Shown in pieces: positions 8,643 through 64,000 of a stretch of DNA of 64,000 nucleotides. Source of the DNA: an uncultured Alphaproteobacteria bacterium. GTDB taxonomy: Bacteria > Pseudomonadota > Alphaproteobacteria > Rhizobiales > Afifellaceae. Position numbers and translations under genes: made by a program. A model generated the notes under the pieces. The model made no database searches, was not told the DNA's origin, and was given only the letters and a program-made list of their open reading frames with translations. Position 1 is the stretch's first letter; each line of letters opens with the position of its first letter. The stretch is taken from NCBI GenBank assembly GCA_963778625.1, contig CAVZVB010000014.1:340849-404848 (forward strand), given 5' to 3'.

Positions 8643-9665
<1,023 letters not shown>

Positions 9666-9930
9666 CTACCCTTCCCGCTCGTTCAGCCGGCCTGCCCGAT
9701 TGCCGTCATTTCGATGAAGCTGCGGGGTTCTAGCTTTCGGCGGCGGGGCGGGCAACCGGAAGCGTTCCGGCCGGCGCCGCCGGAAACGGGCGTAAAGACA
9801 GCAACGCGAGCGGCGGACCCTCAGGCGTCTCAAAATCGTCGGAAACTCTACCCAGGGTGCCCGAAGACATGCCGGCGACGGGCGTGACGGTCTCGCCGCT
9901 TGCCGATCCGGTTTGGGGAGGATTCCAGAA

Positions 9931-10482
9931 ATGCGGACGACCAACCTGTTTTGCCTGACATTCGGCGTATCGCTTTTGACCATCGTACCGGCCCTGGCCG
10001 AAGCTCCGACGGCGGCCCAACAGCAGGCCATCCGCTCGAATTGCGTCAGCGACTATCGGGCGAATTGCTCGGGCGTCCCGACCGGCGGCATGGATGCCCT
10101 GATTTGCCTGGAGCAGCATTCCGACAGCCTGTCGCCGGCCTGCAAATCGGCGGTCGAGGCGGTTGAGCCCGCGGAACCGGAGACGGCGGCCAAGCCGGCC
10201 GAAACCGCGAGCGCTCCTGCGACGACAGCTCCGAAGCCCGCTGAGGCCAGCGAAGCGAGCGCTCCGGCAGCGACCACCGCAAAGCCGCCCGAGACCGAGC
10301 CGAGGCTGACCTTCCGCCAGGAGATGCGCATCGCCGGCGGGTCCTGTGCGATCGACTTCCGGCTGCTCTGTCCGAATCTGCCGGTCGGCCACGGCAATGT
10401 GCTGTTCTGTCTTGAAGTGCACTGGCCGAGACTTGCCCCGGCCTGCCGGGACGCTCTCACAGAGATGGGCGTGAGCCCTTAG
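9931..10482 (+). CDS. secreted cysteine-rich protein with internally duplicated 4-Cys domain
   Basis: Internal ATG (MRTTNLFCLTFGVSLLTIVPALA, signal peptide) preceded by a GGGGAGGA RBS. Two copies of C-x7-C-x12-14-C-x10-13-C are separated by an Ala/Pro/Thr-rich linker. Confidence 0.6.
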   Translation: MRTTNLFCLTFGVSLLTIVPALAEAPTAAQQQAIRSNCVSDYRANCSGVPTGGMDALICLEQHSDSLSPACKSAVEAVEPAEPETAAKPAETASAPATTAPKPAEASEASAPAATTAKPPETEPRLTFRQEMRIAGGSCAIDFRLLCPNLPVGHGNVLFCLEVHWPRLAPACRDALTEMGVSP

Positions 10483-51876: not shown

Positions 51877-53729
51877 ATGTTCCAGAGCTATATCGACAGC
51901 GCCGATCCGACCAAGGGCGCCGAGCGCGCGAAAGCGCTCCGCGCCAAGCTGAAAGAAATGCAGCTCGACGGCTTCATCGTGCCGCGCGCCGACGAGCACC
52001 AGGGCGAGTATGTGCCGAAGGCGTCGGAGCGCCTGGCCTGGCTCACCGGCTTCACCGGCTCGGCCGGAACCGCGGTCGTGCTCGCGGACAGGGCAGCGAT
52101 CTTCGTCGACGGGCGCTATACGCTGCAGGTGCCCGAGCAGGTCGACACGGAAGTCTTCACGCCGGTCGCGGTGATGGAGACGTCGGTCGCCGAGTGGCTG
52201 AAGACGACCGTCGCGACGGGACAGCGCATCGGCTTCGACCCCTGGCTGATGACCCGCACGCAGGTGCGCCAGATCAGGAAGGGCTTGGAGGCTGCCGGCG
52301 CGGAGCTCGTCGCCGTCGAGGAGAACCCGATCGACGCGGTGTGGGACAACAGGCCCGGACCGCCACTTGCCGCAGTCTTCGAGCAGCCCGAAGCGCTCGC
52401 CGGCAAGCCGGTCGAAGAGAAGATCGCCGAGGCGAGCAAGATCGTCGCTGAGAAGGACGCCGACGCCGCAATCTTGACGGACCCGGCATCGATCGCCTGG
52501 CTCTTCAACATCCGCGGCAACGACATTGCGCATACGCCCTCGCCGCTCGCCTTCGCCGCAATCCACGCCGACGGCCGGCCGGAGCTCTTCATCGACGGGC
52601 GCAAGCTGTCGAACGCCATGCGTGACCGGCTGGAGGGCTTCGCCGACGTACGTGAAGCCCGCGATTTCTCCGCGCGACTGACGGCTCTTGGGGGCGAGAA
52701 CCGGAAGGTGCTCGTCGACCCTCAGGGATCGGCGGAGGCCGTCGCGCGGCTCGTCGAAGATGGTGGTGGCACGATCGTTGAGTCTGCCGATCCGGTGGCG
52801 CTGCCGAAGGCGAAGAAGAATCAGGCGGAGCTTCAAGGCGCGCGCGCGGCGCATGTCCGCGACGGCGTCGCCATGGCGCGCTTCCTTCGCTTCGTCGAGA
52901 CGAGCGCGCCAGGGTCGCTTACCGAAATCGATGCGGCGAAGGCGCTCGAAACCTTTCGCGCCGAGACTGCCGCGGAAGTCCGGCACGCCGCTCGCCGATC
53001 TCGCTTTCGATGCGATCTCGTCGACCGGCCCGAACGGCGCCATCAACCACTATCGCGTCACCGAGCGAACCAACCGCCGGCTCGAAGAGGGCGATCTCTA
53101 TCTGATCGATTCCGGCGGCCAATATCAGGACGGCACCACAGACGTCACGCGAACCGTGCCGATCGGCCAGCCTTCGCGCGCGAGGCTCGACCTTTTCCGC
53201 GACCGTTTCACCCGCGTGCTTCGCGGCCACATCGCGATCGCGATCGCGCGCTTCCCGAAGGGGACGACCGGAGCGCAACTCGATCCGTTCGCGCGCCACG
53301 CGCTCTGGCAGGCCGGCCTCGACTTCGACCACGGCACCGGCCACGGCGTCGGCTCCTATCTTTCCGTGCACGAGGGGCCGCAGCGGATCGCCAAGGCCGG
53401 CCACGCGCCGCTTGAGCCGGGCATGATCATCTCCAACGAGCCCGGTTACTACCGCGCCGGCGATTTCGGCATCCGCATCGAGAACCTCGTCGTCGTGCGC
53501 GAGGCGGAGCCGGTGCCGGGCGGCGACCGGCCGATGCACTCCTTCGAGACGATCACGCTCAGCCCCATCGACCGAAGGCTGATCGATCCGCTCCTGATGA
53601 TCGCCGGCGGAGATTGCCTGGCTCGACGCGTATCATGCGCGCGTCTTCGGCGCGCTCTCAGGCTGGCCGACGCTCTCAAGCGAAGACCGCGCCTGGCTTG
53701 AAGCGGCGTGCCGGCCGATCGTCGGCTAG
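51877..53729 (+). CDS. pepP: aminopeptidase P family protein (M24) (two frameshifts)
   Basis: Creatinase_N-like N-terminus (ORF 51877..53415), M24 core GTPLADLAFDAISSTGPNGAINHYRV...DSGGQYQDGTTDVTRT...HGTGHGVGSYLSVHEGP...ISNEPGYY (ORF 52688..53701), and C-terminus ...WLEAACRPIVG* in a third frame. Confidence 0.85.
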
Positions 53730-54641
53730 GCGAACAGCTCCGTGGCGGCGGCCGCGCCGCGGGTGACGCTGACCAGCCAGCGCGCCACGCGGCGCGCCGG
53801 GACGCTCAGTTCCTCCGCGTCGGCATAGAGAAGATAGTAGGCGCATCCGCTCTCATCGGCCGTGCCGAACGGCGCGGCGAGATCGCCATCGGCGAGCCAG
53901 GCGTCGACCAGGGGGCGCCGGCCGATCGCCACGCCCAGCCCCTCCGATGCGGCGCGCAGAATCTGCTCCGCGCCGTCGAGTGCCAGCGCGCCGTCAAGCG
54001 ACGGCGGCTCGAGCCCGTGCGCTTGCGCCCACTCGCGCCATTCCTCTCGGTACGAGGCTTCGACGATCAAACGGGCGGTGCCGAGCGCCGTCTGCGGATC
54101 CATGCCCTCAGAGAGCAGCCCCGGGCGGCAGACCGGAAACGCCTGCTCGTCGAACAGATGGTGCGCGGCGTAACCGGGCCAGTGGCCCTTGCCATAGCGG
54201 ATCGCCAAGTCGATCTGCTCGCGCCTCAGGTCGACGACCCGGCCGGTCGGCACCATCTGCACGTTCACCTCGGGCAGCGCGGCCTCCAGCTGCGCCAGCC
54301 GTGGAATCAGCCAAAGCGTGGCGAGCGACGTCGTCAGCGTGAGCGAGACGCGGCAGCAGGGTCCGCCAAGCGCTTCGGTGGCGCGGCGGATGCGCGCGAA
54401 GGCCGGGTCGATCTCCTCGAAATAGGTCTGTCCGGCGAGCGTCAGCCTGACGGCGTTTCCGGCGCGATCGAAGAGCCGCACGCCGAGATAGTCCTCAAGC
54501 TTGCGGACCTGATGGCTGATCGCCGATTTCGGAAAGGCCGAGCGCTTCGGCGGCCTCGCGAAAGCGGCCGAAGCGGGCCGCCGCGTGGAAGCTCCGCAGC
54601 GCGTGGAGCGGCGGAAGCTGGGAAAGCCGCTCTTCCGACAT
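53726..54641 (-). CDS. LysR-family transcriptional regulator (frameshift in HTH region)
   Basis: N-terminus MSEERLSQLPPLHALRSFHAAARFGRFREAAEAL (HTH) is out of frame with the LysR_substrate body in ORF 53726..54481. Confidence 0.8.
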
Positions 54642-55519: not shown

Positions 55520-55551
55520 CTGCAGACCTCACAAGCGAGACGTCCGCATCA

Positions 55552-57807
<2,256 letters not shown>

Positions 57808-57874
57808 CTATGGCCGCGCCGGGCGGCGTGGTCAAGGCGCCGCTTCAGACGGTAGTGTCTCAGTTTGAAAACTC

Positions 57875-57900
57875 TTCGCTAACCGGGTTCGCTAACCGGG
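57875..57900. repeat. perfect tandem direct repeat 2 x TTCGCTAACCGGG upstream of ligA, at the left edge of the low-GC islet
   Basis: Seen directly: CTCTTCGCTAACCGGGTTCGCTAACCGGGAGGGTCC. Confidence 0.6.
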
Positions 57901-58103
57901 AGGGTCCAGGCCGGCGCGGCGTATGCCGGCCCGCACGCCCATGAGAAATGGTGTCATGTTGGCACGCGTCGCCGGCTGTGCTGGCGTGGCCGGGATCGCT
58001 CGAATCGGTACCCTTGATGGCTTGGAATCCCACGATGAATCCTGACCTGAAGTCGTCATGAGGGACATCGCCTTTTCTAGTCACGGCAGCACCTCCTGTT
58101 TCG

Positions 58104-58532
58104 TTAGCCGTCCGGTGTAATTGTCGGCCACATCCCGACGATGTTCTGACAGTTCGCCTCGACCTCTTTAATACGCGCCGCCGTCGCCTTCACGCCTGGA
58201 TAGAAGCTGCGGGAGCCGATATCCAAAACACTGCAATACGGTCCCCACACAGTTGACGCACCGGCGATGTGAGTTCGGCACCACTCTTGGACCATCGCTG
58301 AGACGATGCCGGCGGTGTCCTTGTTCAGATGGAAGATCGTGGGGAAATGCAGCTTCATCGCCCCTATCAGTTCCCCAGTCTTTCCCTCGCCCCGCAGGAG
58401 GATTTCCGGGCGAACGCTAATCTCAACGTTGTGGATGGTGTGCTTCGGCGGAGCATGTGCTCCCAAAGAGGGATCGCCGCCCTTCAAATCAATGTCGTCA
58501 AGCATGAGGAGGAAGGATTTCGAGGGCATCAA
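58104..58532 (-). CDS. hypothetical protein (islet ORF-B, 131-142 aa)
   Basis: MMPSKSFLLMLDDIDLKGGDPSLGAHAPPKHTIHNVEISVRPEILLRGEGKTGELIGAMKLHFPTIFHLNKD... No recognisable family. It overlaps ORF-A by 35 nt in another frame and may be one ~233-aa gene with a frameshift. Confidence 0.4.
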   Translation of the reverse strand: MMPSKSFLLMLDDIDLKGGDPSLGAHAPPKHTIHNVEISVRPEILLRGEGKTGELIGAMKLHFPTIFHLNKDTAGIVSAMVQEWCRTHIAGASTVWGPYCSVLDIGSRSFYPGVKATAARIKEVEANCQNIVGMWPTITPDG

Positions 58533-58803
58533 TATTCGATGCGATGCGCCGCTGCGTGCCGATCTTCTCCGGCTTCATCTGGCTCAAAATGTTAATCTGA
58601 TTTTCAACAACACCAATATTCTCAAGATTTGATACAATGCATGACGAAATCGCTTCTGCGGCTTCTTTGTAATACATGCCCTTATAATCTGTTGGATACT
58701 TCTGATCACGCAATATTTGTCGTTGACGAGGGGCTTTAGCCGTAGTAAATTCAGCAAGCTTATTTATGCTGATGCGCGGAGTTGTGAGTGTTTTCTTCGC
58801 CAT
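58498..58803 (-). CDS. hypothetical protein (islet ORF-A, ~101 aa, ~40% GC)
   Basis: Internal start MAKKTLTTPRISINKLAEFTTAKAPRQRQILRDQKYPTDYKGMYYKEAAEAISSCIVSNLENIGVVENQ... preceded by a GGGGG RBS. Confidence 0.4.
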   Translation of the reverse strand: MAKKTLTTPRISINKLAEFTTAKAPRQRQILRDQKYPTDYKGMYYKEAAEAISSCIVSNLENIGVVENQINILSQMKPEKIGTQRRIASNIDALEILPPHA

Positions 58804-58826
58804 CGCTAACCCCCAAGGTGTGCGCC

Positions 58827-59066
58827 ATGGACGAGCATTTTGCCGCAATGCCCATCTCCAATTCAACCTGCCTTTGTGTAGGAGGGATCACGCACGTAGA
58901 GGCGGAAGTAGCCAGGTCAGATGGTCACGATGTGGACGGAGCGGGCTACTATCTCTTTCTTGCGCGAGCTGATGCGCTTCAAAGCCCGATTCGACTTCTG
59001 GCCAAGTTTCTTTCGCCGTCAGAAGCGGAAAGCTTCGCTCGTATGATTGAATATCGAACGGCCTAA
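58827..59066 (+). CDS. hypothetical small protein (islet ORF-C, ~79 aa)
   Basis: MDEHFAAMPISNSTCLCVGGITHVEAEVARSDGHDVDGAGYYLFLARADALQSPIRLLAKFLSPSEAESFARMIEYRTA. Divergent from ORF-A. No family recognised. Confidence 0.35.
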   Translation: MDEHFAAMPISNSTCLCVGGITHVEAEVARSDGHDVDGAGYYLFLARADALQSPIRLLAKFLSPSEAESFARMIEYRTA

Positions 59067-59089
59067 GCCGCGATCTTCTTCTTGTAGGT

Positions 59090-59853
59090 CTTCGCCGACG
59101 TCGAACGGTCCCCAGCCGAAGCGATAGCCGGTAAAGAGCACCCAGGTCGCCTCCAGCGCCCGCTCGGCAAGATTGGACAGAACCGCGATCATGATCAGCG
59201 CGGCAACGGCCGGGTAGGCGGCGACCTTTACGAAAGCGCCGACCGGATTGGCGTCCTTCAGGCTGAACGGCCGGCGGTTCTCAGGCTTCAGAGATTCCGG
59301 CAGCACGAAATAGCCGAAGAGGCAGTTGGCGAGCGACAGACAGGCCGCGACGGCAAAGGGGACGCGCGGGCCGATCTCGCCGAGGACTCCCCCGATCACA
59401 GGCCCCGCGATGAAGCCGACGCCGAAAGCGGCGCCGATCAGGCCGAAATTCTGCGCGCGCTTCTCCGGCGGGCTGATGTCGGCGATGTAGGCGGAAGACG
59501 CGGTGATGGTCGCTCCGAACGTGCCGGAGAGGGCGCGCGCCAGCACCAGCCACCAAAGGTTCGGCGCGAGCGAGAGGATCACGTAATCGACCCCGAGCGC
59601 CGCGAGCGAGATCAGGATGACCGGCCGCCGTCCGAAGCGGTCGGAGAGCGAGCCGAGCGCCGGGCTCGCGATGAAGTTCGTGAGATAGTAGACGCCGACG
59701 ATGATGCCGTAGAAGGTCGATGCCTCGGAGACCCTGCCGCCGAGCATCGACTCGACGAGCTTCGGCATGATCGGAAAGACGATGCCGATCCCCACCATGT
59801 CGATGAAGACGGTCACGACGATCACCGCGAGGCTGGCTTGGCGGAGTCTCCAC
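59090..59853 (-). pseudogene. MFS tetA-like efflux transporter, 3'-truncated (N-terminal ~6 TM only)
   Basis: ...VIVVTVFIDMVGIGIVFPIMPKL...SLSDRFGRRPVILISL...TGYRFGWGPFDVG then runs into islet-derived sequence (EDLQEEDRGLGRSIFNHTSEAFRF*) in place of TM7-12. The probable ATG at 59853 is in another frame (frameshift). Confidence 0.75.
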
Positions 59854-60048
59854 TTTGGTGCCGTCGCTTGTTAATGACGCCGCGCGCAGAGCGAACTTCG
59901 CCCTCTTCTACGCCGAGCCTTAGCGGCCAAACCGGTCAGATCAAGGCAATCGCCACTTGCATTTGAAGCAACATATAGTTGTATGCGTGCTTGGCTCGCG
60001 CGGAAACCATCTCCGTCGACGCCGTTCGAGAAATCGGGAGGTATCGCC

Positions 60049-60783
60049 ATGCCAAGCCAAAAGACGATCTTTGCCGCCTTCAACCAAGGCGCTGTTCCGA
60101 CGGTCGCCTGCGTCAACAAGGCCAAAGTGGCGCTCGGCGTCGATTTCAGCAAGCTGGTCGCGGCCCTGCAGAAGTTCCTGGACGATTGCTTCGTGCCCGT
60201 GTGGGGCGCACCAGCCAAGCTGATCGTGGCAAAAAGCGTTCCGGTCGGCGCATGGGCGATGCTTTTTCTCGACGATGCCGACGCAGCCAACGCGCTCGGC
60301 TATCACGATTTGACCAAGGACGGCCTTCCCCTTTCAAAGGTCTTCGTCAAGACAACGCTGGACGATGGGCAGAAGGTCAGCGTCACCGCCTGTCACGAGC
60401 TCGCCGAAATGATGATCGACCCGGCGATCAACCTCTGGGCCGAAGCGCCCAACAGATCGTTCTACGCTTACGAGATGTCGGACGCTGTCGAGGAAGAAGA
60501 ATTCGAGATCAACGGGATCGCGATGAGCGACTTTGTCTATCCCGCCTATTTCGAGGGATTCCGCACACCCAATTCGACGCAATTCGACTATCTCAAAAAG
60601 ATCAGCCGCCCCTTCCAGATCCTGCCTGGCGGCTATTCGATCATCAGCAAGAACGGCAAGATATCGCAGAAATTCGGCTCCGCCGCCAAGCGCAAGCGGT
60701 TCGCGAAGGAAGACCGTCGGCAGCACCGGAGCTCCTTCCGTCCGGAGAAGGTGCATCTTAAGAAGAAGAGCAAGGTTCGCTGA
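60049..60783 (+). CDS. hypothetical protein, 245 aa, basic C-terminal tail, lower GC (~57%)
   Basis: MPSQKTIFAAFNQGAVPTVACVNKAKVALGVDFSKLVAALQKFLDDCFVPVWGAP...VSVTACHELAEMMIDPAINLW...AAKRKRFAKEDRRQHRSSFRPEKVHLKKKSKVR. No family recognised. Confidence 0.5.
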   Translation: MPSQKTIFAAFNQGAVPTVACVNKAKVALGVDFSKLVAALQKFLDDCFVPVWGAPAKLIVAKSVPVGAWAMLFLDDADAANALGYHDLTKDGLPLSKVFVKTTLDDGQKVSVTACHELAEMMIDPAINLWAEAPNRSFYAYEMSDAVEEEEFEINGIAMSDFVYPAYFEGFRTPNSTQFDYLKKISRPFQILPGGYSIISKNGKISQKFGSAAKRKRFAKEDRRQHRSSFRPEKVHLKKKSKVR

Positions 60784-60806
60784 GAGGCGAGCCTTCGCTA
60801 CGAAGA

Positions 60807-62469
60807 CTACCCTGCGATCAGCCGCTCCGCGGCGGCGCGGGCCTCGTCGGAGATCGTCTCGCCGGCAAGCATGCGGGCGATCTCCTCGCGCCGTTCGCGG
60901 CCGGCCACCGGCTCGACCTCGGTCGCGACGCGCTTGCCGCGGTCGACCGCCGACTTGGTGATGAGGAAATGCGCGTCGGCTTGCGCCGCGACCTGCGGCG
61001 CATGCGTGACGGAGAGCACCTGCACGCGCTCCGCAAGCCGCGCGAGCCGCCGCCCGATCGCCTCGGCGACGGCGCCGCCGGCGCCGGCGTCGATCTCGTC
61101 GAAGACAAGCGTCGGCGCCGAGCCGCGATCCGCGAGCGCCACCTTCAGCGCCAGAAGGAAGCGCGAGAGCTCGCCGCCCGACGCGACCTTCATCAGCGGG
61201 CCCGGCTCGGTGCCGGGATTGGTGCGCACATGGAAGGCGATGCGGTCGAGCCCTTCGGGCGAGATTGTCGCCGCATCCGTCTCGCGCGCCACGATGAAGC
61301 GCGCCGCCTCAAGCTTCAGCGCCGGCAGCTCGGCGTTGACGGCGACCTCAAGCGCCTTCGCCGCCTCGCCGCGCCGCTTCGAGAGCGTCAGCGCCGCCTT
61401 GGCGTAGGCGGCAAGCGGCTGCGGCGAGCGAGGCTTCAAGCGCCTTCAGCCGCTCGCCGCCGACGTCGATGTCGGCGAGGCGCGCGGAGAACTCCGCCGC
61501 GACCGCCGGAAGGTCGTCGACCGCGACCTGATGCTTGCGGCCGGCGGCGCGCAGCGCAAAGAGCCGCTCCTCGCTGCGCTCCAATTCGCCCTGATCGAAT
61601 TCGCAGGCGCGAATCGCGTCGTCGAGCCCGCGGCGCGCCTCCTCCAGATTGTCGAGCGCCGCGCCGAGCGCGGCAACCGTCGGCTCGAGCAAGCCGGGAA
61701 GCTCGCCTGACTTCCGCTCAAGCCGCCGCGCGAGGCCGACGAAGTCGGGAATCGGCGAGGCGCTTCCGCCGAGGATCTCGTGCGCCTCGTTCAGGTCGTC
61801 GCGATCCTCTCCGCCCGCATCAGGAACTGCCGGCGCTCGGCAAGCGCCGCCTCCTCGCCGAGCTCCGGCGCAAGCGCCTCAAGCTCCTCCACCGAGGCGC
61901 GGAGATAGTCGGCCTCGCGGGCGGCGGAATCGATCTTGGCGCGGAGCTCGACCGCCTCCGCCTCAAGCGCCCGCAGGGCGCGATAGCGCGCGGCGACGTC
62001 TTCCGCGTCAGGCTCAAGCCGCCGAAGGCATCGAGCAGGCGGCGATGCTCCTCGGCGCCGACCAGCGCGCGCTCGTCGTGCTGGCCGTGGATCTCGACGA
62101 GCCGCGCGCCGATCGCCCGCATCAGCGAGACGCCGCAGGGCTGGTCGTTGACGAAGGCGCGGGTCTTGCCGTCGGCGGTCTGCACGCGGCGCAGGATGAG
62201 CGCCCCTCGGCGGCGATGCCGTTCTCGGCGAGCAGCGCGAAGACCGGATGGCCGGGTTCAGGCTCGAACACCGCCGTCACCTGGCCGCGCTCGGCGCCGG
62301 CGCGCACCAGCGATGCGTCGCCGCGCGAGCCGAGCGCCAGCGCAAGCGCGTCGAGCAGGATCGATTTCCCGGCGCCGGTCTCGCCGGTCAGCACGGTCAG
62401 CCCGCCGCCGAACTCGATCGCGAGCCGGTCGATGAGGACGATGTCCTGAACGGTGAGACTCGCCAGCAT
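60807..62469 (-). CDS. recN: DNA repair protein RecN (multiply frameshifted)
   Basis: MLASLTVQDIVLIDRLAIEFGGGLTVLTGETGAGKSILLDALALALG (ORF 62122..62469). Coiled-coil middle in ORFs 61820 and 61348. C-terminus LMKVASGGELSRFLLALKVAL...LVFDEIDAGAGGAVAEAIG...QVLSVTHAPQVAA (ORF 60807..61439). Confidence 0.85.
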
Positions 62470-63340: not shown

Positions 63341-63522
63341 TAGACGCGCGCTCGTCCTATAGCGGACGCGGCGCGGCTGTCAAAGCCGTTCACCACCGAA
63401 TGATGGCCGGGCTGTGGCTAAACTGCGGCGTTTGAGGCTGGATCAGAGCACTTCCGGGGCGAAGACCGGCGCCGCCAGCCCCTGCGCCGAGCTCCGCGTG
63501 GCCCTCCTGACGGGTCTCGCGC

Positions 63523-64000
63523 TCAGCCGGCTCGGAAACGGGCGACCAGGCGTCGCGGCGGCGAAAGCAGGGCGGAAAGCGCCAGCGCGTTCAGCTTGTG
63601 GCCGCCCTTGTGCGAGCGATAGAGGCCGAGAATCGGGGCGCCGGCCAACGCCAGGTCGCCGATCGTGTCGAGCACCTTGTGGCGCACGAACTCGTCGGGG
63701 AAGCGCAGCCCCTCCGGGTTGACCACCGCGCCGTCGCCGATGACGACGGAATTCTCAAGCGAGGAGCCGAGCGCAAAGCCCGCCGCCCAGAGCTTTTCCA
63801 CGTCGCGCATATAGCCGTAGGTGCGGGCGCGCGGCGATCTCCTGGCGGAAAGTTCTTCGGCGTGAGGTCGATCCCAAGCGCCTGGCGGCCGACGACCGCG
63901 CAGTCGTAGTCGATGCTGACCTCAAGGCGGAAGCGTCCAAGCGGGCGGAACTCGGCGAAGGCGGCGCCAAGCTCGACGCGGACCGGCTTGTCGACGCGGA
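63523..64000 (-). CDS. lpxC: UDP-3-O-acyl-N-acetylglucosamine deacetylase, C-terminal part (frameshifted; continues beyond window)
   Basis: YMRDVEKLWAAGFALGSSLENSVVIGDGAVVNPEGLRFPDEFVRHKVLDTIGDLALAGAPILGLYRSHKGGHKLNALALSAL (ORF 63523..63810). The upstream segment VELGAAFAEFRPLGRFRLEVSIDYDC is in another frame. Confidence 0.75.

Follow-up and report, generated by a model that had tools for sequence, protein, structure and literature searches.

Next to ligA, the analysed stretch of DNA (the window, 64 kb in full) carries an islet of low GC content that abuts the remnant of a native tetA-like MFS gene. After refinement of its coordinates, the islet spans 57851..59092 (1.24 kb). GC content lies between 0.40 and 0.58 in 200-nt windows from 58000 to 59100, against 0.67 for the entire window, in line with the compositional break described in an earlier sequence-only reading of the locus. 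The main features (Table 1) are a terminal inverted repeat, a spacer, a gene encoding a protein of predicted nuclease fold, the divergent ORF-C and the very end of a transposase gene. The spacer has no family match, no homologue in other loci and no Rfam match, and a 74-aa ORF inside it (57860..58084, minus strand) is probably not a gene. The left border had been placed at a 13-bp tandem repeat. This repeat is indeed perfect and present in two copies, but it lies inside the element, and the border is instead formed by the terminal repeat at 57851-57869. Homology to the ligA upstream region of relatives stops at ~57840.

Table 1. Features of the islet and its right flank, with complete related elements found elsewhere.
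Feature	Position	Strand	Remarks
Terminal inverted repeat, IS1-family cargo-carrying insertion sequence (probable)	57851..57870	+	GGTAGTGTCTCAGTTTGAA+A; islet begins at its outer end
Spacer, terminal repeat to nuclease-gene stop	57871..58103	.	233 nt; contains the 13-bp tandem repeat (two copies, 57875-57900)
Single gene ORF-A + ORF-B, predicted Cas4/RecB-fold PD-(D/E)XK-like protein	58104..58803	-	232 aa; split by an extra A in the run 58518-58520
ORF-B	58104..58532	-	
ORF-A	58498..58803	-	
Gap between divergent start codons	58804..58826	.	23 bp, about two back-to-back ribosome-binding sites as read from the sequence
ORF-C, conserved divergent partner of the nuclease-fold gene	58827..59066	+	79 aa
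End of IS1-like transposase gene	59063..59092	-	nine codons and stop (...KTYKKKIAA, stop); C-terminus match to L035 and L003
Native tetA-like MFS gene remnant	59093..59853	-	codons 1-252 of 413; junction between 59092 and 59093
Complete element with 8-bp target duplication, L003			CGACGGTC
Complete element with 8-bp target duplication, L015			ACCGCAAA
Complete element with 8-bp target duplication, L053			AAGAATTT
Complete element with 8-bp target duplication, L061			AAGGGGGG
Complete element with 8-bp target duplication, L062			GAGTTCTC; interrupts comM

The right border coincides with the loss of MFS sequence, as had been proposed, with the junction directly after ...RFGWGPFDVG. Codons 253-413 were removed by deletion, and the remaining fragment aligns to positions 6-249 of the 382-position Tet(A/B/C) profile. 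The remnant also has a 1-nt indel right behind its GTG start. The relative L057 shows the empty site, where recN, an intact 413-aa MFS gene (97% identical), a 37-bp spacer and ligA follow one another. Such a comparison of the ligA-MFS region among relatives had been suggested with the sequence-only reading. It upholds both the truncation of the MFS gene and the arrival of foreign DNA by insertion, followed by a deletion that took the 3' part of the native gene. A candidate MFS 3'-end remnant to the left of the islet, hinted at by tblastx (E 0.004), gained no support from direct tblastn and blastn searches. A search for terminal repeats flanking a second insertion at 59854-60815 found none that was convincing.

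The sequence-only reading counted three small genes in the islet and considered that ORF-A and ORF-B could be one. All three reading frames exist, but they represent only two real genes, and the apparent third gene is a frameshift artefact. Dropping one A from the run at 58518-58520 yields a fusion with full-length matches to 235 proteins of 228-235 aa (53-72% identity, E down to 1e-107). The extra A is most likely an assembly error, because the nearby ligA, recN, lysR and lpxC are also frameshifted. Compared with a relative's proteins, recN carries four frameshifts, ligA one, lysR one and lpxC at least one, amounting to about one indel per kb. Alternatively, the frameshift might be real, and the pair at this locus a decaying pseudogene remnant with no present function. 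In favour of this, the independent Logan contig L006 (run ERR11571143) agrees at 100% identity over 58042-58987 and contains the extra A as well. The element has, moreover, already been truncated and immobilised, and broken copies are also present in other genomes. However, the Logan contig probably derives from the same reads, the indel rate of the surrounding conserved genes predicts ~0.7 artefactual indels per 700-nt gene, and the reading frame is otherwise intact and well conserved. We consider genuine decay of the gene somewhat unlikely.

The islet retains recognizable parts of a transposon at both of its ends. The exact 19-mer GGTAGTGTCTCAGTTTGAA at the left end occurs once in the window and had no matches in 100 shuffles, and no second copy within three mismatches was found across the 64 kb. 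The DDE transposase gene of IS1 type is not intact at the right end of the islet, with only the last nine codons and the stop being kept. The C-terminus of this remnant resembles ...GPYKKPAA and ...GPYKKRP, both directly before the stop, in L035 and L003, respectively. The transposase stop overlaps the ORF-C stop (CTAA), a geometry shared with L003, L016, L035, L060 and L061. In L003, L016, L025 and L035, the two passenger genes are likewise arranged as here with respect to the repeat and the transposase stop, in both order and orientation. The islet is probably the end fragment of an IS1-family cargo-carrying insertion sequence next to ligA, which lost its transposase and still holds a two-gene cargo of a Cas4-like nuclease-fold protein and ORF-C. 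The element would have entered at the MFS-ligA boundary of the recN-MFS-ligA cluster. A later deletion, reaching from inside the transposase gene to MFS codon 252, would have removed the transposase, the other element end and 39% of the MFS gene, leaving a single terminal repeat and the cargo. The fragment is immobile because the deletion took the transposase and the other end. Loss of the target duplication together with the other terminal repeat precludes reconstruction of the original insertion site.

Related elements elsewhere indicate what the complete form looked like. In L003, L016 and L025, elements of 3.7-4.3 kb have the 19-mer at either end, and in L022, L035 and others it follows shortly after the nuclease gene. 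Intact relatives measure 3.1-4.3 kb, have terminal inverted repeats of 21-38 nt and are flanked by 8-bp target duplications (Table 1). The IS1-type order is a repeat, variable cargo, the DDE transposase, ORF-C (convergent with the transposase, with overlapping stops), the outward-reading nuclease-fold gene and the second repeat. Transposases beside the nuclease-fold gene are of the IS1 (PF03400) or IS1595 (PF12760/PF12762) types, and intact elements with the 19-mer repeat encode an IS1-type (PF03400) transposase of 274-309 aa. A short-range repeat search, comparing 350 nt upstream of the transposase with up to 450 nt downstream of the nuclease gene, was negative. The idea of repeat-less "domesticated" transposases was dropped after a long-range self-comparison found the 21-38-nt repeats 3-4 kb apart. 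The idea that transposase and nuclease diverge together was likewise rejected. Given the weak correlation between them (r = 0.23 for IS1595-type pairs, -0.44 for IS1-type pairs), they are not one co-evolving unit. None of the 120 metagenome contigs with the exact repeat encodes the pair, which makes the pair an optional cargo outside the transposition machinery. An IS1-like transposase was found in 28 of these contigs, and eight are complete transposase-bearing elements of 2.5-3.9 kb.

The related elements resemble transporter insertion sequences (tIS; the ISNwi1+ and ISNha5 groups of the IS1595 family and the ISMhu11 group of the IS1 family). Shared characteristics are a single DDE transposase, short terminal inverted repeats, 8-bp target duplications, a length of 3-4 kb and passenger genes of unknown function. 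The heads of their repeats fit the ISfinder consensus of IS1 (GGnnnTG), ISNha5 (CGGnnTT) and ISNwi1 (ggnnatTAT). The window differs in keeping only a remnant, consisting of one repeat, nine transposase codons and the cargo. Literature searches on IS1595 passenger genes, on ISNwi1, ISNha5 and ISMhu11, and on Cas4 with IS1595 found no account of the pair. A tblastn search of 72,556 plasmids and 50,697 phages revealed no copy.

The AlphaFold model of the 232-aa protein has a clear Cas4/RecB-type PD-(D/E)XK fold. The earlier statement that the islet proteins show no assignable motif thus holds at the sequence level but not at the level of the model. Based on the predicted structure, the protein belongs to a large unannotated family with a Cas4/RecB/Dna2-type PD-(D/E)XK fold, comprising 1458 clusters at 50% identity and extending to Bacteroidota and other phyla. 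Only structure prediction places this family among Cas4/RecB-type nucleases. Pfam returned nothing at E <= 0.001 for 132 family representatives, the lone weak match being unrelated (IntS11_C, E 0.0024, one member), and two profiles had no match among PDB sequences. No match was found in Pfam, NCBIfam or PHROGs for the two halves, the full-length protein or distant members. PADLOC, which had been proposed with the sequence-only reading as a scan for defence components, was equally silent. PADLOC-DB 2.0 gave no match for ORF-A, ORF-B, ORF-C, full-length members or four of five distant members, and a weak unrelated match to Cas6a (E 0.0049) for the fifth. The description of the cargo as an unannotated accessory pair stands across PADLOC, Pfam, NCBIfam and PHROGs.

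Conservation within the family would suit a non-canonical active site, if the protein has one. P132 is invariant, position 133 is E or D in 33 of the 34 aligned members, and K150 is conserved in more than 90%. Two residues before K150 the family has Ala, Gly, Ser or Cys, never an acid. Distant members retain P-[E/D]133, K150 and an acidic residue at position 92, all as located from alignment and secondary structure and not by 3-D superposition. The conserved acid at position 92 might substitute for the missing acid of motif III. Only C190 and C218 are conserved among the cysteines, with no N-terminal Cys, and the four-Cys Fe-S signature of Cas4, AddB and Dna2 was not found. Because the motif III acid and this signature are missing, the protein may be inactive or restricted to DNA binding. 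The overall fold is predicted to be shared with the Cas4/RecB-family nucleases (Cas4, AddB/AdnAB, Dna2 nuclease domains, MGME1 and phage Cas4-like exonucleases), including the N-terminal S-x-[S/N]-x-L helix region. The protein is stand-alone at ~230 aa and keeps the P-[E/D] of motif II and the Lys of motif III. It differs from these nucleases in having Ala or Gly for the motif III acid, no Fe-S signature, no QxxxY motif family-wide and no profile match to Pfam (Cas_Cas4, PDDEXK_1 etc.) or PDB sequences.

ORF-C has no recognisable fold and is present in all alphaproteobacterial loci of the nuclease-fold gene. In Alphaproteobacteria, ORF-C is thus the obligate divergent partner of the nuclease-fold protein. 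Isolates with an intact pair include Tistlia consotensis USBA 355 (L016), Nitratireductor soli ZZ-1 (L025), Methylobacterium sp. Leaf125 (L028) and Methylocystis borbori 9N (L021). Across loci, the divergent gap measures about 20-45 bp. At the locus in the window, the 23-bp gap scarcely exceeds two ribosome-binding sites, and each promoter must therefore sit inside the opposite gene. A putative sigma-70-like site for ORF-C lies at 58723-58751 within the nuclease gene, and is weak (one found against 0.5 expected). Beyond Alphaproteobacteria, the family occurs without ORF-C, which counts against an intrinsically lethal toxin.

A function of the pair in defence or addiction is plausible. Several circumstantial hints point towards genetic conflict, including the lower GC content (the module lies ~11 GC points under its flanks in 40 of 40 loci), the nuclease-first decay of the pair, the cargo of sibling elements (STAND-like ATPase, HNH endonuclease, Bro-N and P63C proteins) and an hsdM neighbour. 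Most neighbours of the nuclease gene are transposases, and a few others are suggestive, namely a STAND-like ATPase, an HNH endonuclease, DUF3800, IrrE/XRE pairs and, in one case, hsdM. The gene next to hsdM is that of a distant member and immediately follows the hsdM of a type I restriction-modification operon. We tentatively suggest that the pair could be a nuclease-based conflict module, acting in anti-invader defence and/or as an addiction device that retains the element. In such a module, foreign or host DNA would be cut by the nuclease-fold protein as effector, under the restraint or regulation of ORF-C, and the overlap of the divergent transcription units could provide an additional layer of antisense control. 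The broader proposal is more doubtful still. It would make the pair a candidate two-component nuclease-based immunity or addiction system, spread by IS1- and IS1595-family cargo insertion sequences across Alphaproteobacteria, with relatives in Bacteroidota and other phyla and a non-canonical PD-(D/E)XK site (acid in helix, P-E/D, A/G-x-K).

A narrower alternative would confine the pair to addiction, so that it would stabilise the transposon as a toxin-antidote module and play no part in defence against phages or plasmids. This would fit the strict co-occurrence of both genes in Alphaproteobacteria and their asymmetric decay. A broken nuclease gene next to an intact ORF-C occurs in L029 and L035 and also in L030 and L031, both nanopore-type MAG loci, and the opposite was never seen. 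Sequencing errors may account for some of the broken copies though, the genes are divergent rather than in an operon, ORF-C has no antitoxin-like fold and homologues outside Alphaproteobacteria lack ORF-C. A purely addictive role is thus unlikely. Tn3-family transposons carry toxin-antitoxin pairs. The islet cargo resembles these pairs and Tn7-like defence cargo in being a compact lower-GC accessory pair on a transposon, made of a putative enzyme and a small partner, with the enzyme gene decaying first. It differs in the divergent arrangement and in that both genes lack matches to known toxin, antitoxin or defence families. The divergent genes, the absence of a known fold in ORF-C and the absence of a toxin-family match for the nuclease-fold protein also set the pair apart from type II toxin-antitoxin systems.

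A role in transposition itself is very unlikely. The nuclease-fold protein would then be a TnsA-like accessory factor, cutting the second strand at the element ends or processing the ends, with ORF-C as regulator. The TnsA protein of Tn7 likewise has a PD-(D/E)XK fold and a gene inside a DDE transposon, and is not known to have the canonical motif III acid either. The predicted fold with its acid-acid-Lys constellation, the position of the gene (usually 8-40 nt from the terminal repeat and reading outward) and its association with both IS1-like and IS1595-like transposases, two related families, amid otherwise variable cargo, would all suit such a factor. A constant component of the machinery is contradicted, however, by the repeat-bearing metagenome contigs, which lack the gene throughout yet in part encode the transposase. 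An assembly chimera or a contaminant joined to the contig is the least credible explanation and barely worth retaining, since the left junction is the exact outer end of a terminal repeat where the homology of relatives stops and the right junction lies inside a transposase gene with the expected overlapping-stop geometry, even if the assembly is error-prone and the sole independent contig (L006, 58042-58987) stops within the islet on both sides and covers neither junction.

For this genome, the locus represents an ordinary case of a decayed transposon that wrecked a non-essential efflux gene beside ligA. The wider meaning lies in the elements. Small insertion sequences of the IS1 and IS1595 types carry such pairs, along with a STAND-like ATPase, an HNH endonuclease and P63C proteins. 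Annotations usually record no more than a transposase for such elements, and the cargo is consequently missed. If the pair is a defence or addiction system, these elements would be a cheap source for finding more.

The islet between ligA and the truncated MFS gene is left over from a mobile element of an already known kind. GC content in 200-nt windows falls to 0.40-0.58 across 58000-59100 against a window average of 0.67, confirming the drop described in the sequence-only reading, and the three ORFs that it listed are all found. The islet extends over 57851..59092. Its right junction (59092|59093, directly past ...RFGWGPFDVG in the alignment to relatives) stands as first placed, while the left border moves from a 13-bp tandem repeat, itself genuine, to 57851; on that side, similarity to the relatives' DNA upstream of ligA extends to ~57840. 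The claimed loss of the MFS 3' half is borne out by a partial Tet(A/B/C) match and by an intact homologue at an empty site. This closest full-length protein (P0141; 413 aa, 97% identical) is encoded in a related MAG, whose contig L057 has the gene order ftsQAZ, lpxC, bamD, recN, MFS, 37-bp spacer, ligA. MFS codons 253-413 and the MFS-ligA spacer are absent from the window, and no trace of the MFS 3' end was found left of the islet.

The neighbours of the pair, consisting of the nuclease-fold gene (ORF-A and ORF-B) and the divergent ORF-C, are not conserved among loci, except for recurring IS1595-family or IS1-like transposases. In the IS1-like cases, the stop codons of transposase and ORF-C overlap. 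A short-range search around the pair recovered no terminal repeats. Long-range self-comparison revealed terminal repeats of 21-38 nt bounding elements of 3.1-4.3 kb in loci from other genomes (L003, L008, L010, L015, L016, L019, L025, L051, L053, L060, L061), several with clear 8-bp target duplications. At locus L062 (4265-7955), a 3.7-kb IS1595-type element carrying the pair splits comM, a known integration hotspot, and shows perfect 26-nt inverted repeats and the 8-bp duplication GAGTTCTC. The repeat GGTAGTGTCTCAGTTTGAA(ATTT) is common to the IS1-type elements, most of which have the nuclease-fold gene ending 8-40 nt away from one repeat. In the window, the exact 19-mer of this repeat is found downstream of the nuclease-fold gene, oriented as expected for IS1-type elements, and the stop of a transposase C-terminus overlaps the ORF-C stop in the CTAA arrangement of IS1-like elements. 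The repeat and this C-terminus identify the islet as the end fragment of an IS1-type element. A deletion took away all but nine codons of the transposase, together with the remaining cargo, the second repeat and 39% of the MFS gene at its 3' end. The insertion/deletion event proposed earlier is thus upheld by the empty site, terminal repeat and transposase remnant. Within the IS1 family, ISfinder lists a subgroup, ISMhu11, whose members reach up to 4.6 kb. A ParA-like ATPase (AAA_31), an odd companion of an insertion sequence, is present in IS1-type elements of L003 (3184-4794), L013 (9604-11900) and L016 (5741-6808); in L003, two ~80-aa genes precede it, upstream of the transposase. According to a 2021 description, cargo-carrying insertion sequences (transporter IS, tIS) were at that time known only from the IS1595 and IS66 families (10.1101/2021.05.26.445724).

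Coordinates of features in the window
Feature	Position	Strand	Remark
lysR	53729-54641		one frameshift, near 54530
ligA	55549-57777		one frameshift, ~56308, where GC3 phase also switches
Exact 19-mer	57851-57869		single copy in window; 0 matches in 100 shuffles
13-bp tandem repeat	57875-57900		confirmed in sequence
ORF-B	58104..58532	-	overlaps ORF-A in a different frame
ORF-A	58498..58803	-	
ORF-C	58827..59066	+	79 aa
MFS fragment	59019..59825		aligns with positions 6-249 of 382-position Tet(A/B/C) model
Transposase C-terminus ...KTYKKKIAA*	59092-59063	-	resembles IS1-like ...GPYKKPAA*, ...GPYKKRP*
244-aa ORF	60049..60780	+	inside 59854-60815 insertion
recN	60807-62460		five successive frames, i.e. 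four frameshifts in 1.7 kb
lpxC	63489-63998		at least one frameshift

The MFS-ligA boundary is variable, as two related contigs (L058, L059) carry an acyltransferase_3 gene there (9286-10377), and genes have been gained at it repeatedly within this clade. ligA (window 55599-57726) shares only ~71-72% DNA and 59-65% protein identity with L057-L059, compared with 77-94% for the flanking genes (recN, MFS and others); recombination beside the variable site may have replaced ligA. A second insertion of lower GC (0.53-0.60) occupies 59854-60815, from the recN stop to the MFS start; the corresponding interval in relatives measures just ~40 bp. No terminal repeats were found around it. Its 244-aa ORF has no match in Pfam, NCBIfam, PHROGs, PADLOC or PDB and shows 28-44% identity to hypothetical proteins of Caballeronia, Ralstonia, Streptomyces and Rhizobium megaplasmids.

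Deleting one A in the run at 58518-58520 (gaa-a-tcc) joins ORF-A and ORF-B into a 232-aa protein with end-to-end matches to 235 database proteins (228-235 aa, 53-72% identity, E down to 1e-107). Because the fusion aligns over the whole length of these homologues, the two ORFs are one gene, as had been suspected (~233 aa). The frameshift is likely an artefact. A tblastn survey with L058 proteins revealed frameshifts in recN, ligA, lysR and lpxC, and a 1-nt indel directly follows the GTG start of the MFS gene. Since the frameshifted genes are conserved or essential, assembly indel errors occur at ~1 per kb, which predicts about one frameshift in a 700-nt gene. The many errors probably stem from the assembly being a long-read MAG. 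In L057, ligA is likewise called in two pieces (546 and 172 aa). Logan contig L006 (946 nt, run ERR11571143) is identical to 58042-58987, extra A included, and counts as weak independent evidence, the underlying reads probably being the same. Both ends of this sole independent islet contig lie inside the islet, short of either junction, which could reflect strain heterogeneity or low border coverage.

The earlier impression that the ORFs carry no assignable motif agrees with scans of Pfam, NCBIfam, PHROGs and PADLOC, which returned no match for the halves, full-length homologues, distant members or 132 family representatives, though a structure model reveals a nuclease fold. PDB sequences queried with profiles likewise returned nothing. 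An exhaustive profile search recovered 1458 clusters at 50% identity (E <= 0.001; 989 at E <= 1e-10), almost all stand-alone proteins of 220-240 aa. A 72%-identical homologue modelled with AlphaFold2 (62 aligned sequences, pLDDT 92.9) matches Argonaute-associated Cas4-family ACE1 (10.1), MGME1 (9.2), RecE (8.1) and lambda exonuclease (7.7), and Foldseek against viral models retrieved phage PD-(D/E)XK, RecB-family and Cas4-family exonucleases (E 1e-5, TM ~0.5). The predicted fold firmly places the protein, a putative nuclease, in the Cas4/RecB-type PD-(D/E)XK superfamily. Distant members retain an N-terminal R-I-S-x-N-K-L-x-E-Y stretch, acidic residue 92 in a long helix, invariant Pro132 followed by Glu/Asp, G147-x-x-K150, D194 and cysteines C190 and C218. 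The (D/E)xK motif has Ala or Gly in place of the acid, and the family alignment lacks a four-Cys Fe-S signature.

ORF-C homologues (78-87 aa, 45-82% identity) are divergent from the nuclease-fold gene and lie ~20-45 bp upstream of it. An ORF-C HMM matched every alphaproteobacterial locus retrieved and none from Bacteroidota, Phycisphaerales, Desulfovibrionaceae or Saccharibacteria. The start-to-start gap barely accommodates two back-to-back ribosome-binding sites, so each promoter must lie within the other gene, which agrees with a single weak sigma-70-like site.

As the best reading, we tentatively suggest that the pair might be a nuclease-based conflict module for defence and/or addiction, with ORF-C as the restraining partner. 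Several indirect points speak for it. GC content of the pair is lower than that of its flanks in 40/40 loci, by 11 points on average and irrespective of host GC, and the pair is rare and patchy (43/185,579 species genomes). The nuclease-fold gene is disrupted beside an intact ORF-C in an isolate genome (L029) and a short-read MAG (L035), and the reverse was never seen among the loci examined. Sibling elements carry STAND-like ATPase, HNH endonuclease, Bro-N and P63C proteins, and in a type I restriction-modification operon the gene of one distant family member stands directly after hsdM. Counting against a conflict module are the lack of any known defence or toxin match, the non-canonical active site, the divergent gene order, family members without ORF-C outside Alphaproteobacteria, and searches of 72,556 plasmids and 50,697 phages that found no copy. 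Within the conflict-module reading, a purely addictive function is an unlikely variant.

A TnsA-like role of the nuclease-fold protein in transposition is very improbable. A scan of JGI metagenomes for contigs with the exact 19-mer yielded at least 120; among the 120 listed, 28 encode an IS1-like transposase, seven a P63C protein and none the nuclease-fold protein or ORF-C. The repeat is paired in 15, including eight complete transposase-bearing elements of 2.5-3.9 kb and several miniature elements of 89-800 bp, and 48 single-repeat contigs reach at least 1.5 kb inward. Contigs of Alphaproteobacteria and Bacteroidota (L044, L074, L091, L142, L157, L172) have the 19-nt repeat in identical form. 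In the Bacteroidota MAG contig L044 (5810-9240), it bounds a 3.4-kb element without transposase, carrying a 26%-identical nuclease-fold family member and an HNH endonuclease. Being encoded in none of the listed contigs, the pair is optional and uncommon cargo, which essentially excludes the TnsA-like role. The accessory nature first proposed for the islet genes therefore holds, now with an IS1-type element as the vehicle, and the cargo protein represents a family that is new and unannotated, although the nuclease superfamily around it is known.
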